Assembly: GCA_947367415.1 (NCBI GenBank)
Contig: CANBEE010000001.1
Location: forward strand, 1 to 37,837
Source of the DNA: an uncultured Bacteroidales bacterium
GTDB lineage: Bacteria; Bacteroidota; Bacteroidia; Bacteroidales; Bacteroidaceae
Direction: 5' to 3'
Length of the DNA stretch: 37,837 bases
The notes under the pieces are model-generated. The model saw only the letters and a program-made list of their open reading frames with translations, did not search any database and was not told the DNA's origin. Below are positions 3,373-14,891 of this stretch, piece by piece. Position numbers and translations under genes: made by a program. The stretch's first letter is position 1, and every line of letters begins with the position of its first letter.

Positions 3373-3472
3373 GGTCAACAATCGACGGTCAACAGACAAC
3401 GGTCAACAGACAACAGTCAACATACTCATCAACCATCATCCCTCAACCATCACCCATCAACCCTCAACCCTT
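3373..3472. repeat. degenerate tandem repeat, seven units of ~14 bp (GGTCAACAGACAAC decaying to CAACCATCAYCCNT)
   Basis: Units: GGTCAACAATCGAC GGTCAACAGACAAC GGTCAACAGACAAC AGTCAACATACTCAT CAACCATCATCCCT CAACCATCACCCAT CAACCCTCAACCCTT. The array fills the whole convergent spacer and runs into the last codons of gadC. Confidence 0.85.
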
Positions 3473-4921
3473 ATCCTCCCAATGGAAAGGCTCGAAATTG
3501 GTGTCAGCATCTTTCCACGAGGGTTTGCGCATAGCATAGATGATGAGTGGAGCAGCTACCACCACCACACATCCGATGACGAGCACGGCATACCACATGG
3601 TCTTGCTACCCACGGCAATCTGACCGGGAGGAATGAAGCTGAGGATAAAGGCTAAGAGCGAACCGAGGAAGCCTACACCACCCACAATCCACATCAGACC
3701 GTTGCCCTTCGAACCGATGCGGAAAGGACGGTTGGCTTTCTTCATGCTGTAGCGCAGATAGATGGCGGCGGCAAACATCAGCAGGTACATGATGAGGTAG
3801 AGCAGCACGGTCAGCTGCGAGAGTATCTGGTAGAAGCTCTGCACCGAAGGCATCACCACGAACAGCAGTCCCAAGAGGGTGACTATACCGCCCTGGATGA
3901 GCAGGATGTTGCGCTGCACACCCAGCTTGTTGGTCTTCTGGAAGAAGGGAGGCAAGTAGCCCGCACGGCCTACGGCAAAGATACCCTTCGAGGGACCCGA
4001 CACCCAGGTGAGCACACCGGCCAGCACGCCGAAGGCAAGGGCCACGGCAATCACGGGCGACAGCCACGAGGCACGGATATAGGCAAAGTAGCGGTCGAAG
4101 CCCACAAGCAGGCTCTGCGTGAGGTTGATATCGTCCTTCGGGATGATGATGCCCAACGAGTAGGTACCCAGAACAAAGATGAGCACTGTCACGAACGAAC
4201 CGATGAACACGGCCTTCGGGTAGTTGCGCGAGGGATTGTCCACATCTTTCACGTGGATACCGCCCATCTCCATACCGGCATAGAAGAGGAAGATGCTCGA
4301 TGCCAGCACGAGGTTGTTGAAGTTGCTGAGGTCGGGGAAGAAGCTGCTGTGGAAGTCGAGCTGCGAATGTCCGCCCGTAGCCAAGTACATGACGGCCAGC
4401 ACCACCAGCAGGCCAGCCGGGATGATAGTACCCACCAAGCCTCCAATCTTCGACACCTTGCCCACCCATGACATGCCTTTAAGCGAGATGAAGGTAGCCA
4501 GCCAATAGATGGCCAGCACCACCACAAGGGTGTAGATGCGGTTTGAGGCCAATGCCATATCGTGCGCCCCGTTCATCCCGATAAAGGCGAGCGACACGGC
4601 GCCAAAGGTCAGCACCGTAGGGTACCAGATGGTGCTCTCTACCCACTGCAGCCAGATGGCGAGAAAGCCCATACGCTTGCCGAAGGCTTCGCCTACCCAG
4701 CGGAACACACCGCCCTGCTTGTCGGAGAACATCGCCGCCAGCTCAGCCGCCACGAGAGCCGTGGGGATGAGGAACACGATGGCCGCAAAGAGATAATAGA
4801 ATGCCGAGCTCATGCCATATTCGGCCTCGGCAGGAAGTCCGCGCAACGACACTACAGCCGTCACGTTCATGATAGCGAGTGTAGCCACACTCAGCTTGGT
4901 TGCTTTACCTATAGTTGCCAT
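3464..4921 (-). CDS. gadC: APC-family amino acid permease, probable glutamate:GABA antiporter
   Basis: The 485 aa product has about 12 TM helices and an APC-type N-terminus (ATLAIMNVTAVVSLRGLP). It lies divergent to glutamate decarboxylase, the classical gadC/gadB pairing. Confidence 0.8.
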   Translation of the reverse strand: MATIGKATKLSVATLAIMNVTAVVSLRGLPAEAEYGMSSAFYYLFAAIVFLIPTALVAAELAAMFSDKQGGVFRWVGEAFGKRMGFLAIWLQWVESTIWYPTVLTFGAVSLAFIGMNGAHDMALASNRIYTLVVVLAIYWLATFISLKGMSWVGKVSKIGGLVGTIIPAGLLVVLAVMYLATGGHSQLDFHSSFFPDLSNFNNLVLASSIFLFYAGMEMGGIHVKDVDNPSRNYPKAVFIGSFVTVLIFVLGTYSLGIIIPKDDINLTQSLLVGFDRYFAYIRASWLSPVIAVALAFGVLAGVLTWVSGPSKGIFAVGRAGYLPPFFQKTNKLGVQRNILLIQGGIVTLLGLLFVVMPSVQSFYQILSQLTVLLYLIMYLLMFAAAIYLRYSMKKANRPFRIGSKGNGLMWIVGGVGFLGSLLAFILSFIPPGQIAVGSKTMWYAVLVIGCVVVVAAPLIIYAMRKPSWKDADTNFEPFHWEDKG

Positions 4922-4985
4922 AGTTGTTAGGTTTTTAAGATTCTGAGGGGTATAACAATGGTTTAGGGTGTTTGGTTTAGAGTAT

Positions 4986-5104
4986 GCAGCTCCGCTGCTG
5001 CTTAATCATCGCTTCGCGATTTGTTAATATGCCTACGGCAAGGTTAAAGTGCCTGCGGCACGGTGAAAGTAACCTTTGGTTACGGTTAATCGCAGCTCTG
5101 CTGC
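4986..5104 (-). repeat. array of six 11-15 nt mini-hairpins (4-6 bp stems, 3-nt loops) spaced 19-23 nt apart by GGTTAA-like linkers
   Basis: Palindromes on the plus strand: gcagcTCCgctgc 4986, atcgcTTCgcgat 5008, tgccTACggca 5030, gtgccTGCggcac 5049, gtaaccTTTggttac 5069 and gcagcTCTgctgc 5092. The strand is assigned to the gadC sense because the loops then read GGA/GAA/GTA/GCA. Confidence 0.8.
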
Positions 5105-5122
5105 TAGTCAACGTTAATGTCA

Positions 5123-5150
5123 TCGTTCCTCGTTTCTCGTTCCACGTTTA
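5123..5150. repeat. four tandem heptamers: TCGTTCC TCGTTTC TCGTTCC ACGTTTA
   Basis: Read directly. The heptamers lie between the hairpin array and the gadB start. Confidence 0.8.
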
Positions 5151-5222
5151 GAGTGTAGGGTAAACATTTTCGGTTGTAGGCTTGTTCTATGCTGAACTAA
5201 ACCAACCCTTAACAGAATATTT

Positions 5223-6644
5223 ATGGAACGTACAGATTTTAGTACCGATGTGTTTGGATCTAAGGAGATGCTGCAACCTTCTCCTGTAGACAGAATTCCC
5301 CAACAGGGCACACGCCCCGACATTGCTTATCAGATGGTGAAGGATGAGACCTTTGCGCAGACGCAGCCGCGGCTCAACCTGGCTACCTTCGTCACTACGT
5401 ACATGGATCCTTATGCTACGCGACTGATGAACGAGGCTATTGCACTCAACTATATAGATGAGACGGAGTATCCGCGTGTGGCGGTGATGTGTGCCAAGTG
5501 TATCAATATCATGGCCAACCTGTGGAACACGCCCGAAAAGGCGCAGTGGAAGACGGGCGCCCTGGCCATCGGCTCCTCTGAGGCCTGCATGCTGGGCGGT
5601 GTGGCTGCATGGCTGCGCTGGAAGGAACGTCGCGAAGCACAGGGCAAGCCTACCGACAAGCCCAACTTCATCATCTCCACAGGCTATCAGGTGGTGTGGG
5701 AGAAGTTTGCCGACCTCTGGCAGATAGAGATGCGTACCGTGCCCCTCACGCTCGACAACATCACCCTCGACCCCAAGCAGGTGATTGAACTGTGCGATGA
5801 GAACACCATTTGCGTAGTGCCCATCCAGGGCGTCACCTGGACAGGACTCAACGATGATGTGGAGGCACTCGACGCCGCACTCGACGAGTACAATGCACGT
5901 ACGGGGTACGACATTCCCATCCATGTGGATGCAGCCTCGGGCGGATTCATACTCCCCTTCCTGCAGCCCGAGAAGAAGTGGGACTTCCGTCTCAAGTGGG
6001 TGCTCTCCATCAGCACCTCGGGCCACAAATACGGCCTCGTATATCCCGGCCTCGGATGGGTGGTATGGAAAGACAAGAAGTACCTGCCGGGCAAGATGTC
6101 CTTCTCGGTCAACTACCTTGGCGCCGACATCACGCAGGTAGGACTCAACTTCTCCCGCCCCGGTGCACAGGTGCTGGGCCAGTACTATCAGTTCATCCGC
6201 CTCGGTTTCGAAGGTTACCGTCAGGTGCAGCACAACTCCATGGAGATAGCACGCTACCTCCACTCGGAGATTGGCAAGATGGCACCCTTCAAGAACTACA
6301 GTCAGGACATCGTGAACCCCCTATTTATATGGTACATGAAGGAGGACTATGCGAAGAATGCCAAGTGGACGCTCTATGACCTGCAAGACAAACTCAAACA
6401 GAGCGGATGGATGGTACCTGCCTACACCATGCCCAAGGATATCGAGGACAGCGTAGTGATGCGTATCGTGGTGCGCCAAGGCTTCAGCCGCGATATGGCC
6501 GACATGCTGCTGGGCGACATCGGAGCCGCCATCATCGACCTCGAGAAACTGGAGTACCCCACGCCTTCGCGCATCGCATGTGAGCAGAAGAAGCCGGTGA
6601 AGCCTACCATCTTTACTCATACGGGGACCAAGAAACGAACGTAG
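5223..6644 (+). CDS. gadB: glutamate decarboxylase (PLP-dependent)
   Basis: The 473 aa product contains ISTSGHKYGLVYPGLGWVVWKD, the PLP-lysine motif of GAD. The N-terminal PVDRIPQQG...PDIAYQMVKDE region is typical of bacterial GadA/B. Confidence 0.92.
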   Translation: MERTDFSTDVFGSKEMLQPSPVDRIPQQGTRPDIAYQMVKDETFAQTQPRLNLATFVTTYMDPYATRLMNEAIALNYIDETEYPRVAVMCAKCINIMANLWNTPEKAQWKTGALAIGSSEACMLGGVAAWLRWKERREAQGKPTDKPNFIISTGYQVVWEKFADLWQIEMRTVPLTLDNITLDPKQVIELCDENTICVVPIQGVTWTGLNDDVEALDAALDEYNARTGYDIPIHVDAASGGFILPFLQPEKKWDFRLKWVLSISTSGHKYGLVYPGLGWVVWKDKKYLPGKMSFSVNYLGADITQVGLNFSRPGAQVLGQYYQFIRLGFEGYRQVQHNSMEIARYLHSEIGKMAPFKNYSQDIVNPLFIWYMKEDYAKNAKWTLYDLQDKLKQSGWMVPAYTMPKDIEDSVVMRIVVRQGFSRDMADMLLGDIGAAIIDLEKLEYPTPSRIACEQKKPVKPTIFTHTGTKKRT

Positions 6645-9398: not shown

Positions 9399-9452
9399 GA
9401 GTACTCTGATTACTCGGAGTATTCAGAGTTCTCCGAGTAATCCGAAAAATCT
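9399..9452. repeat. six tandem 9-mers (GAGNNNTCN) that also contain an 11 bp perfect inverted repeat
   Basis: Units: GAGTACTCT GATTACTCG GAGTATTCA GAGTTCTCC GAGTAATCC GAAAAATCT. The inverted repeat is attactcggag (9409-9419) and ctccgagtaat (9431-9441). Confidence 0.85.
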
Positions 9453-12521: not shown

Positions 12522-12575
12522 TCGGAGTCCTCGGAGAACTCAGAGTGCTCGGATTTCTCGGAAAACTCCGATATT
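12522..12575. repeat. six tandem 9-mers of the same family as 9399-9452
   Basis: Units: TCGGAGTCC TCGGAGAAC TCAGAGTGC TCGGATTTC TCGGAAAAC TCCGATATT. In the +3 register these read GAGTCCTCG GAGAACTCA GAGTGCTCG GATTTCTCG GAAAACTCC. AATTTTC AATTCTC AATTCTC follows at 12579-12599. Confidence 0.85.
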
Positions 12576-12590
12576 CTTAATTTTCAATTC

Positions 12591-14891
12591 TCAATTCTCC
12601 ATTAAATACAGTCTATACTCTCCCGCCCCGAGGGTTACTATTGCCGTTGAGCCGCTGTAGTTCTCTGCGGACTCAAAATAGTTTTTCCATGTGCCCTCGA
12701 TGGGGAAGGTCACGGTGATGGCTTGCTCGCGGGTGTCGGGGTTGCCCACTACCACGAAGGCCTCTTCGCCAGCTACGCAGTTGATTTGGCGTCCTGTGCT
12801 CCAGTGCGATGTGGATACCTTCCAGACGAAGTCGGCCTCGCTGGTGAAGAACTGGGGATGCTCCCTGCGGAAGGTGATGAGCTGTGCATAGGCGTCGTAG
12901 AGGGCACGGCGCTCGGGCATCTCAAGGTAGTCCCAGCGTAGGGGCTTCTCGCCCGTGCGGCCATTCTCCTCGATGGAGTAGTCGTAGCCGAGTTCGCCAA
13001 ACTGCCATATCATCTTCGGGCCCGGCACGGTGAAGAAGAAGGCGGCACCCATGGCGGCGCGCTGCATCTGCTCATTGAGCGAATGCGCTATGGAGCCTGC
13101 GCCCCAGGTCTTGGCCTTGTAGATGAGGCGCTCCTCGTCGTGGCTCTCCATGAAGCCTACGTAGGCTCCGAAGGGCATGGAGGTGCCTGTCCACAGTCCG
13201 CTGAAGCTGCTGTTCTCCACGTAGCCCATGGCCGATTGGCAATAGCTGTTGTTGAGGTTACGCCATACCTTGATGCCCTCCTCGGCAAGTGCACGCTCCT
13301 CGGCATCGCAACAAAAATGCTCGAGTATGACAACGGCATCGGGGCTTACGGCTTTGATGGCATCATGGTACTCGGTCAGCACGTCGATACGGCCCTGGTC
13401 GTAGTTCGATGCAGTGGCCTCGGTACATTGGCGTTGGGTGAAACCCTTGGTGAGGTCGAAGCGGAAACCGTCGAAGCGGTACTCACGGAGCAGATATTCA
13501 AGATTGCGCTTCACATGCTCGCGCACCTCGGCATTCTCGTGGTTCCAGTCGTGGAACACGCTGTAAGGGTGGGGGGCTGTGACGTTGAACCATGGATTGT
13601 CCCCTGCGGTGCAGTTGTTGGCAGTGTTCCAATAGAGCTTGGCCATGGGGTGTGCACCCGTGGCGTGGTTGTATACCACATCGAGGAGCACGGCGATGCC
13701 ACGGCTGTGACATTCGTCGATGAACTGTTTGTACATCTCGCGTGTGCCGTATGCCTTGTCCATGGCGAAGTAGGCGCAGGGGTTGTAGCCCCAGCTGTTG
13801 TTGCCGTCGAACTCCTGCACCGGCATCAGTTCGATGGCGTTGATGCCCAGTTCCTCCAGATAGTCGAGGCGGGCAAGCGCTCCCTTCAGGTCCTTGGTGG
13901 AGGAGAAGTCGCGTAGAAGCAGTTCGTAGATGATGAGGTCGTCGGGGTTGCTGACGGTGAAGTCCGTCTGCCATGCATAGCTTTCGCGGGCGGTCTGGAA
14001 TGCTCCCACGAGTCCCGATGTGGCAGTGGGGTAGGCGGGCATGTCGGGGTAGGTGCTTGCCGGTATCCAGTGGTCATCGGCACTGTATACAATCTCGGTG
14101 TAGGGGTCGCAGATGCGTATGGTGCCGCGCTCGGCATCGTGCAGATGGTATTGGAAACGGTATTCCTTGCCTGGCTCTACCTGCGTGAAGGTGTACCACC
14201 ACGTGCTTGCCTCCTCATCGCGCTTCATGGCATATGCCGATTGGTACTCCCAATTGCTGAAGTCGCCGATGACGTAGGCATGATCGTAGCTGCCGCCTTG
14301 TCCGTCATGGTCTTTCAGCACCAGGGTGACGGTATGCTCGTCTATGTAGTTGATGCCCTCGCTTGTGCCAACAGGCATAACGGCATGCTCCACTTCATCA
14401 TAAGCGGTGCCTTGCTGGTCCTCCACAGTGCAGAAGAGGTCAGCCGTCTGACGGGTGCCATCGGCATTGCGCACCACCACGCCTATCTTGTTTATCACCT
14501 CAGTGCGTGAGGCACCGAACCACTCTCTGATGCTTGGTTCAAGGCGCAGCATCCACACGTCGGGTACGTCGGTGGCGGTGAAGCGGCATCGGTCCAGATT
14601 GGTATTCCAGTCGGCCGGTACATGCTTCCACTCGAACTCCACGATACCAATGTGTGCATACAGCACGTCGGTGTACCCACTGAAAGGGAATCCGCCACCT
14701 GCCTTATAGTAGATAATGCAGGGCTCATCGGCCTTCGGTGTGCCATTGTCTGTGAGCGAATAGCCTGAGAGCCCGTAGGGCAGATTGCTTAGGTCTATCT
14801 CTTCCTCGGGCGTGACTGGTACTTGTGGCTCGCAGCTGGCCAGAAATGCCAAGAAGCATAATTCAAGAGCAAATAGAATATAGCGTTTCAT
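12591..14891 (-). CDS. GH13 pullulanase/debranching-like enzyme with a CBM48-like module (lipoprotein)
   Basis: The 766 aa product has the signal LAFLASC. The segment VIGDFSNWE is CBM48-like. Other motifs are NSWGYNP, DVVYNHA, GFRFDLTKG, ILEHF and MESHDE. Confidence 0.8.
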   Translation of the reverse strand: MKRYILFALELCFLAFLASCEPQVPVTPEEEIDLSNLPYGLSGYSLTDNGTPKADEPCIIYYKAGGGFPFSGYTDVLYAHIGIVEFEWKHVPADWNTNLDRCRFTATDVPDVWMLRLEPSIREWFGASRTEVINKIGVVVRNADGTRQTADLFCTVEDQQGTAYDEVEHAVMPVGTSEGINYIDEHTVTLVLKDHDGQGGSYDHAYVIGDFSNWEYQSAYAMKRDEEASTWWYTFTQVEPGKEYRFQYHLHDAERGTIRICDPYTEIVYSADDHWIPASTYPDMPAYPTATSGLVGAFQTARESYAWQTDFTVSNPDDLIIYELLLRDFSSTKDLKGALARLDYLEELGINAIELMPVQEFDGNNSWGYNPCAYFAMDKAYGTREMYKQFIDECHSRGIAVLLDVVYNHATGAHPMAKLYWNTANNCTAGDNPWFNVTAPHPYSVFHDWNHENAEVREHVKRNLEYLLREYRFDGFRFDLTKGFTQRQCTEATASNYDQGRIDVLTEYHDAIKAVSPDAVVILEHFCCDAEERALAEEGIKVWRNLNNSYCQSAMGYVENSSFSGLWTGTSMPFGAYVGFMESHDEERLIYKAKTWGAGSIAHSLNEQMQRAAMGAAFFFTVPGPKMIWQFGELGYDYSIEENGRTGEKPLRWDYLEMPERRALYDAYAQLITFRREHPQFFTSEADFVWKVSTSHWSTGRQINCVAGEEAFVVVGNPDTREQAITVTFPIEGTWKNYFESAENYSGSTAIVTLGAGEYRLYLMEN

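Follow-up and report, generated by a model that had tools for sequence, protein, structure and literature searches.

The spacer between the divergent gadC-like and gadB genes carries a compact array of short palindromes, and the segment that holds it (positions 4959-5162 of the window, the whole 37,837-nucleotide stretch of DNA that was analysed) probably represents an allele of an insertion that differs between strains; it lies between the two gad core promoters and would be a local copy of a modular DNA repeat that is dispersed in ruminant-gut Bacteroidales. Near-identical strains either lack the element or carry something else in its place, and at gad it is not conserved. Whole units, deletions bounded by short repeats and exchanged flanks distinguish its alleles, and the palindromes are a property of the family as a whole, held at the DNA level by Watson-Crick pairing.

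Both the sequence and a palindrome scan bear out the six perfect palindromes that the initial annotation had described in this spacer, along with their coordinates, spacing and linkers (Table 1). The palindromes (H1 to H6) start 22, 22, 19, 20 and 23 nt apart and have stems of 4-6 bp. Palindromes with a 3-nt loop occur across the whole window at 4.23 per kb (stem of at least 4 bp) or 1.16 per kb (stem of at least 5 bp). At the first of these rates, chance would give about 0.55 palindromes in 130 nt, against the six present; a Poisson estimate for six or more gives about 2e-5 per 130-nt stretch and less than 0.01 over the entire 37.8 kb, in which the densest other stretch of that length holds at most four. 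On the minus strand, which is the gadC-sense strand, the loops read GGA, GAA, GTA, GCA, AAA and AGA from H1 to H6, as had been reported. Folded as single-stranded DNA, the array is predicted to adopt six local hairpins as its minimum-energy fold (z = -3.4). An independent 4.9-kb ENA contig (L082) has an identical spacer, so the array is not an assembly artefact.

Table 1. Features of the gadC-gadB spacer and its flanking genes (positions are those of the window)
Feature	Position	Strand	Description
gadC-like amino-acid antiporter	3464..4921	-	Pfam AA_permease_2, E = 1.2e-60; flanking gene, outside the element
gadC-proximal spacer	4922..4958		Present in all alleles; alignable in the window, L081, L003 and L001
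Heptamer-type tract TGGTTTAGGGTGTTTGGTTTAGAGT	4959..4983	+	GTTTAGR/GTGTTTG module; left border of the variable cassette; direct repeats D1, D5
Six-unit array H1-H6	4986..5104	+	GGTTAA-type linkers tGCTTAATc, ttGTTAATa, aGGTTAAa, GGTGAAa, GGTTAATc
H1	4986-4998		GCAGC/TCC/GCTGC, perfect palindrome, 3-nt loop
H2	5008-5020		ATCGC/TTC/GCGAT, perfect palindrome, 3-nt loop
H3	5030-5040		TGCC/TAC/GGCA, perfect palindrome, 3-nt loop
H4	5049-5061		GTGCC/TGC/GGCAC, perfect palindrome, 3-nt loop
H5	5069-5083		GTAACC/TTT/GGTTAC, perfect palindrome, 3-nt loop
H6	5092-5104		GCAGC/TCT/GCTGC, perfect palindrome, 3-nt loop
Degenerate linker remnants tAGTCAACGTTAATGTCA	5105..5122	+	Junction where the 61-nt centre of L003 is missing (window versus L003 alignment)
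Heptamer tract TCGTTCC TCGTTTC TCGTTCC ACGTTTA	5123..5150	+	TRF period 7, 3.7 copies; TTCGTCT/CGTTCC module family
Heptamer-type tract GTTTAGAGTGTAGGGT	5146..5162	+	Right border of the variable cassette; repeat D1
gadB-proximal conserved region AAACATT...CTTGTTCTATGCTGAACTAAACCAACCCTTAACAGAATATTT	5163..5222	+	Outside the element; related sequence before gadB in L001-L012
gadB glutamate decarboxylase (PLP decarboxylase)	5223..6644	+	Pfam Pyridoxal_deC, E = 2.5e-65; flanking gene, outside the element

Heptamer tracts border the array on both sides. The initial annotation had noted the four tandem heptamers to the right of the array, which TRF also detects, and a CTAAACCAA motif common to both gad leaders, which corresponds to inverted repeat I1. 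Both are there, but the heptamers and the leader motif before gadC turn out to be modules of the same repeat family and not gad signals. The GTTTAGR/GTGTTTG module of the left border also borders arrays in L100, L105, L107, L121, L132 and L135 and is absent from L001, and tracts of the TTCGTCT/CGTTCC family commonly come after arrays, with similar ones in L103, L112, L115, L120 and L101. The flanking tracts have the properties of heptanucleotide simple-sequence repeats (head-to-tail 7-nt units, intergenic, strain-variable), and the hairpin array does not. Heptamer and nonamer tracts also occupy other intergenic regions of the window (3373-3469, 9399-9445 and 12522-12603, with the heptamers of the last also given as 12573-12603); the types are (GTCAACA)7, (CATCAAC)6, (ATTCTCA)4 and 9-mers of the GAGTACTCC type, and (GTCAACA)7 resembles the GACAACG cassette that stands in for the hairpin array in L081.

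The sequences next to the two start codons (4922-4958 for gadC and 5163-5222 for gadB) are kept in all alleles, which places the element between two intact divergent promoter regions. The first of these segments probably holds the gadC core promoter and leader, and the second the promoter and leader of gadB, again probably. A promoter and terminator scan returned no sigma-70-like promoter and one terminator-like match, H2 with a T-rich tail, at chance level. Many Bacteroidaceae loci share a pattern upstream of gadB (window 5163-5215; L001-L012) that consists of (G)AAACATT, about 15-17 nt, TTGTTAC or TTGTTCT, and then GAACTTAACCC(C)TAAAC; it is closer to an ECF-type GGAAC...GTT promoter than to the Bacteroides TAnnTTTG box, and AAACA-N13-GTTAT before gadC is a relative of it. 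Regions upstream of gadB seem to have been invaded repeatedly. In a Bacteroides xylanisolvens MAG (L066, 2400-2770) the place is taken by an unrelated long palindromic MITE-like element of GCCCTGAAAGGGC and CGTAGGGCAACGCCCTACG hairpins. Groups of four or five hairpins upstream of other gadB genes (L002, L004, L066 and others) were rejected as chance clusters or, in L066, as that different element.

Comparison of gad loci shows how variable the spacer is. A genome scan with GadB returned 80 related loci, of which L003 alone had the array, and the length of the gadC-gadB spacer varies four-fold between strains. In L001 (GadB 99% identical) the same divergent gene pair is separated by 126 nt without the element, and in the outgroup L016 (87% identical, same arrangement) by 142 nt of AT-rich sequence, also without it. 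L081, whose GadB protein is identical, has a 258-nt spacer in which a heptamer cassette (two 62-nt tandem copies of GTTTAGGGTGTAGGGGGG plus (GACAACG/GACAACA)n) lies at the array's site: its flanks equal those of the window up to GGTTTAGRGT and again from TAGAGTRTAGGGTAAACATT, and the two sequences are identical again from the GTTTAGAGTGTAGGGT tract at 5146 onward. The reference allele, in the window and L082, has six units in a spacer of 301 nt. L003 (GadB 95% identical) has seven units, a centre and five inverted units (hairpin plus TTAACC) in 500 nt. L101, which carries a partial gadB, has a spacer of more than 650 nt with an L003-type right arm and further repeats, and the right half of that spacer is 93% identical to L003.

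The alleles that have the element differ in a simple way. The window allele is L003 minus exactly one 18-nt unit, the 61-nt centre and the 120-nt right array; the junctions of these deletions fall at short repeats such as TTCCACGTT, and the stems are identical across the window, L082 and L003. The centre itself, ATGGCACACAGATGACACGGATTGGGCGGATGACCACAGATTTTTA (L003, 2200-2260), is a low-complexity 7-9-mer module missing from the window allele. Because the L001 flanks have diverged, that locus by itself does not separate insertion from deletion; the outgroup L016 speaks for an ancestral spacer without the element. Orthologous spacers (L001, L016 and L081) keep neither the palindromes nor their phasing, the outcome that the initial annotation had set beforehand as counting against its idea of a gad-specific role, and that idea does not stand.

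Outside gad, arrays of the same kind are found in many unrelated settings. A metagenome scan was run with the pattern GCAGCNNNGCTGC-N0-1-GSTTAA-N10-18-KGTTAA, which was seeded with the GCAGC hairpin and therefore samples only part of the family. It matched 54 contigs; eight were chance matches in coding sequence, and about 46 were true arrays: long runs of GGTTAAT plus a differing perfect mini-palindrome, with unrelated flanks. The host range covered is that of ruminant-gut Bacteroidaceae-like contigs, and the GC content of the array contigs runs from 0.34 to 0.53. Several contigs hold two or more arrays, and arrays often meet an inverted array head to head. About twenty lie within 200 nt of a contig end, a position typical of repeats that break short-read assemblies. 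Heptamer tracts border these arrays as well: (GGTTAAA)n, (GGTGAGC)n, (GACGAAA/ACGAAGA)n, (GTTTAGR/GTGTAGR)n, (GGCTGTT)n and (CAGATTA)n. Within its own 37.8 kb the window contains a single array of this type, the one in the gad spacer, and this counts against reading it as a dispersed repeat. A recurrent palindromic module, CCTGTCTCAGGGGGACAG or GTCCCCCTTGAAGAGGGGAC, was seen beside arrays in L084, L101 (about 830-860), L115 (4180-4205) and L120. In L130, near-identical copies of an array with (CAGATTA)n and GGGGTAGGGCGGTAGGGACGCTGC... (1282-1332 and 3584-3634) lie 2.3 kb apart and bracket an AAA-ATPase_like/PDDEXK_9 gene.

Several features of these copies bear on how they change. A 114-nt block is 95-100% identical after six different left flanks. 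L095 and L126 have only the right flank in common, and L098 and L103 only the left; such one-sided sharing places arrays at recombination junctions. Near-identical copies of the 114-nt block show seven differences in 15 loop columns, three in 50 stem columns and two in 43 linker columns, and the stem changes between them are uncompensated. Chimeric units such as GTTGC-GGA-GCCAC indicate exchange between units. BLAST with the 396-nt L003 element gave no match in phage and plasmid collections, and the hairpin-seeded pattern had no matches in viral contigs. Rfam returned nothing at E<=10 for window positions 4700-5500 and nothing at gathering score for ten array-rich loci. A literature search found no description of a GGTTAAT/mini-palindrome family, which is apparently undescribed so far; we rate it as bacterial interspersed repeats with a grammar that is unusual within that kind.

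The grammar of the units is the same in the gad spacer and elsewhere. In each unit a perfect palindrome of 13-15 nt comes after a constant linker of 7 nt, GGTTAAT (or its variants GGTGAAT and GGTTAAA), and units are arranged as direct arrays. The palindromes have a 5' arm of consensus G-Y-N-S-C, a C-G closing pair and a variable loop. Family-wide, 327 segments were counted between consecutive GGT[TG]AA linkers 15-28 nt apart, and a stem of 4 bp or more forms a perfect hairpin in 288 of them (88%); the repertoire comprises 121 distinct hairpins and 37 distinct 5-nt stems. Linker periods peak at 18, 20, 21 and 22 nt (average about 21 bp, range 18 to 24), with a separate peak at 7 nt that represents pure heptamer runs (55 period-7 linker pairs). 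The negative control was a set of 80 tandem repeats from viral contigs, matched by a generic 3x GGTTAAT pattern at the same linker spacing; these are ordinary tandem repeats with essentially no hairpins. Among triloop units, 230 of 234 have the C-G closing pair, and GNA loops make up 38% of triloops compared with 12.5% expected. These GNA loops divide evenly between the strands (45 forward, 45 reverse), so the one-strand C(GNA)G pattern of the window is local.

That the stems are kept self-complementary, as first claimed for the window, holds for the whole family. Covariation was measured across family units because the stems are identical in the window, L082 and L003, which makes an orthologue test inapplicable. 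The alignment (A3) comprised 59 distinct units chosen solely by a 20-nt linker distance and was compared with 500 shuffles. Standard pairs fill 95.6% of cells, against 68.5% in shuffles; 83 cells are changed on both sides, against 25.8; and the covariation score is 0.726, against 0.231. None of the 500 shuffles reached the observed value in any of these measures, and every slid register collapsed. Stem complementarity is thus real and maintained, over 37 stem types. G-U pairs occur in 2 of 295 cells, which means that the Watson-Crick symmetry belongs to the DNA and is not RNA-type pairing. Palindromes this close to perfect, with an unvarying C-G closing pair and an excess of R-N-A loops, resemble the product of selection on some structure, and this counts against the main reading.

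The neighbourhoods of the arrays are mostly of the capsule-locus type. Gene ends next to array blocks are 5' ends about as often as 3' ends (39 versus 32), and in the 146 ORFs that neighbour them the most frequent families are GT1/GT4 glycosyltransferases, AAA_14/DUF4143, PF05635, HU-HIG, WecG, acyltransferase_3, Peptidase_M15_3 and Rml. The 25 commonest Pfam families of these ORFs include no transposase and no RAYT, and a search for a recurrent neighbour that might act as a mobilising enzyme turned up only capsule-locus genes, AAA ATPases, HU-HIG and PF05635. Arrays can also lie inside genes: orthologous GT4 genes (88% identity) carry in-frame arrays with a different number of units (L105, 5850-6230; L126, 828-1051), located in the linker between two Rossmann domains, where they are translated into a QVNCDDSQVNVA..PRLNAAEQ-type repeat. 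The open frame in both alleles suggests that the gene remains functional. Small genes of PF05635 ('23S rRNA intervening sequence protein', an Avd-like four-helix bundle; 6 of the 146 ORFs) lie between or beside array blocks in L136 (13281-13652), L093 (204-581) and L132 (5291-5683), and in L136 the two blocks that flank the gene are near-identical direct repeats. This could reflect a link between gene and repeat, or simply that both are frequent in variable loci.

A dispersed DNA repeat of this kind could be maintained through its own structure. The mini-palindromes would act as DNA and not as a gad RNA leader. At the replication fork, single-stranded DNA could fold into stable mini-hairpins (C-G-closed purine-N-A triloops are very stable DNA mini-hairpins), and the hairpins together with the repeated linker would favour slippage, giving gain and loss of units. 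Perfect stems could be restored by intrastrand template switching, and homologous exchange or recombination between copies would be promoted, with the family persisting and spreading as selfish or neutral DNA. Its influence on gad would be confined to the distance between two intact promoters; an incidental or co-opted effect of the array on gadC or gadB is possible. No target-site duplication was found, and no transposase or RAYT among the 25 commonest families of neighbouring ORFs, which counts against the main reading as far as the way of spreading is concerned.

Other readings fit part of the evidence. Tentatively, and with lower probability, the arrays could be a previously undescribed class of interspersed element, propagated by dedicated machinery that acts on single-stranded DNA mini-hairpins and is possibly linked to PF05635, an element that would cause capsule loci to rearrange and could settle in frame in protein linkers. 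As for such mobilising machinery, the array-flanked PF05635 genes (L093, L132 and L136) are a lead towards it, not evidence.

It is unlikely that the array is a non-autonomous, MITE-like transposon with ends made of transposase-binding-site arrays as in Tn7 or Mu, of which the window would hold an internally deleted copy. Such a transposon would account for the head-to-head inverted arrays of L003 and many metagenome copies, candidate terminal inverted repeats of which the window copy has one arm only, for the near-identical 114-nt block in six flank contexts and for the insertions within the GT4 gene. Against this, the number and order of units are free to vary, conservation between units is confined to the 6-7-nt linker, transposases are missing from the 25 commonest neighbouring families, and phage and plasmid collections and viral contigs gave no matches. 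Nor was a target-site duplication found: the 9-nt GTTTAGAGT repeat at the borders was considered as one and rejected, since it is a heptamer module of the family that recurs beside unrelated arrays and in the L081 cassette.

It is distinctly improbable that the array offers binding sites to a DNA-binding or nucleoid-type protein which would read GGTTAAT about every two helical turns, organise or insulate variable loci and, here, insulate the divergent gad promoters. The linker is constant, its period averages about 21 bp, and genes for HU-HIG DNA-binding proteins form one of the most frequent neighbouring families (6 of 146 ORFs); however, periods that range from 18 to 24 bp do not keep the helical face, the perfect palindromy of the DNA between sites is left unexplained, and arrays lie within coding sequence and are absent from sister strains. 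Finally, it is highly improbable that the array is a gadC cis-regulatory RNA or structured 5' leader, or a multi-hairpin platform to bind or sponge a protein: six hairpins with purine-N-A loops do lie on the gadC-sense strand and as RNA the array folds with lower energy than its shuffles (z = -3.1), but the predicted RNA minimum-energy fold pairs H1 with H6 and differs from six local hairpins, the stems use Watson-Crick pairs almost without G-U, the loop bias favours neither strand, arrays are found in either orientation and about as often beside 5' as beside 3' gene ends, L001, L016 and L081 keep the divergent gene pair without the array, and Rfam has no match.

If the array is an allele of a dispersed DNA repeat, it lies outside the conserved control of acid resistance, and a tempting false lead in gad biology is removed. 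The grammar is unusual in that one fixed heptamer alternates with dozens of different, perfectly Watson-Crick palindromes. Short-read assemblies break at copies of the family; in capsule-type loci of gut Bacteroidales such copies mark recombination junctions, and they can sit in frame inside enzymes. Knowing it should help in annotating intergenic 'structure' calls, and it raises the question of what maintains the palindromes.

Known repeat systems resemble these arrays to different degrees. An iteron or operator array was rejected, as the constant part is only 6-7 nt (at least 15 nt required) and the periods run from 18 to 24 nt. A CRISPR array was likewise rejected: the constant part is 7 nt (at least 23 required), and the variable part is 13-15 nt and palindromic (spacers of at least 26 required). 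BOX elements of Streptococcus pneumoniae (boxA-boxB(n)-boxC) are also modular dispersed repeats with a variable number of internal units and stem-loop potential, but their modules are 45-59 nt long, sequence-conserved and found in Firmicutes, and they do not have the grammar of constant linker and variable stem. The Correia elements of Neisseria are MITEs. Correia-type MITEs share the inverted-repeat architecture of the L003-type copies and insertion near promoters and occasionally inside genes, whereas the array family has no fixed length, target-site duplication or related transposase.

Of the three identities first proposed (a structured gadC leader, a protein-binding array and a REP/BIME-like element), the last comes closest; the near absence of G-U pairs argues against the RNA leader. 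The REP/BIME elements of enterobacteria and pseudomonads have palindromic units with conserved extra-palindromic motifs and are mobilised by RAYT transposases. The arrays resemble them in that short palindromes cluster as mosaics with brief conserved motifs in between, and in being strain-variable and sites of recombination; they also appear to be intergenic and present in many copies, with about 46 contigs that carry arrays and several that carry two or more. There are multiple distinguishing characteristics. First, array palindromes are perfect, 13-15 nt long and built on at least 37 stem types, whereas REP is one or a few conserved imperfect sequences (20-40 nt). Second, the flanking motif is GGTTAAT and not a GTAG-type tetranucleotide. 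Third, array units are direct where BIME units alternate, and RAYT was not seen near arrays among the 25 commonest neighbour families. Cyanobacterial STRR heptamer repeats, reportedly described by Mazel in 1990 and Elhai in 2008, are said to have 21-27-nt 'small dispersed repeats' inside them, and the arrays are like STRR in embedding very small hairpin-capable units between heptamers. In Bacteroidetes, heptamer repeat assemblages have been described in intergenic regions, with close relatives that have short repeat-free spacers (MacGregor, 2015; PMC4679880). With both STRR and these assemblages the arrays share a heptanucleotide vocabulary and several kinds of tract that fill intergenic regions, although the sequences are unrelated and the alternation of heptamer and variable palindrome and the pairing of inverted arrays are not described there. 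On this comparison, the architecture is closest to REP/BIME mosaics and to heptamer STRR tracts with embedded small dispersed repeats.
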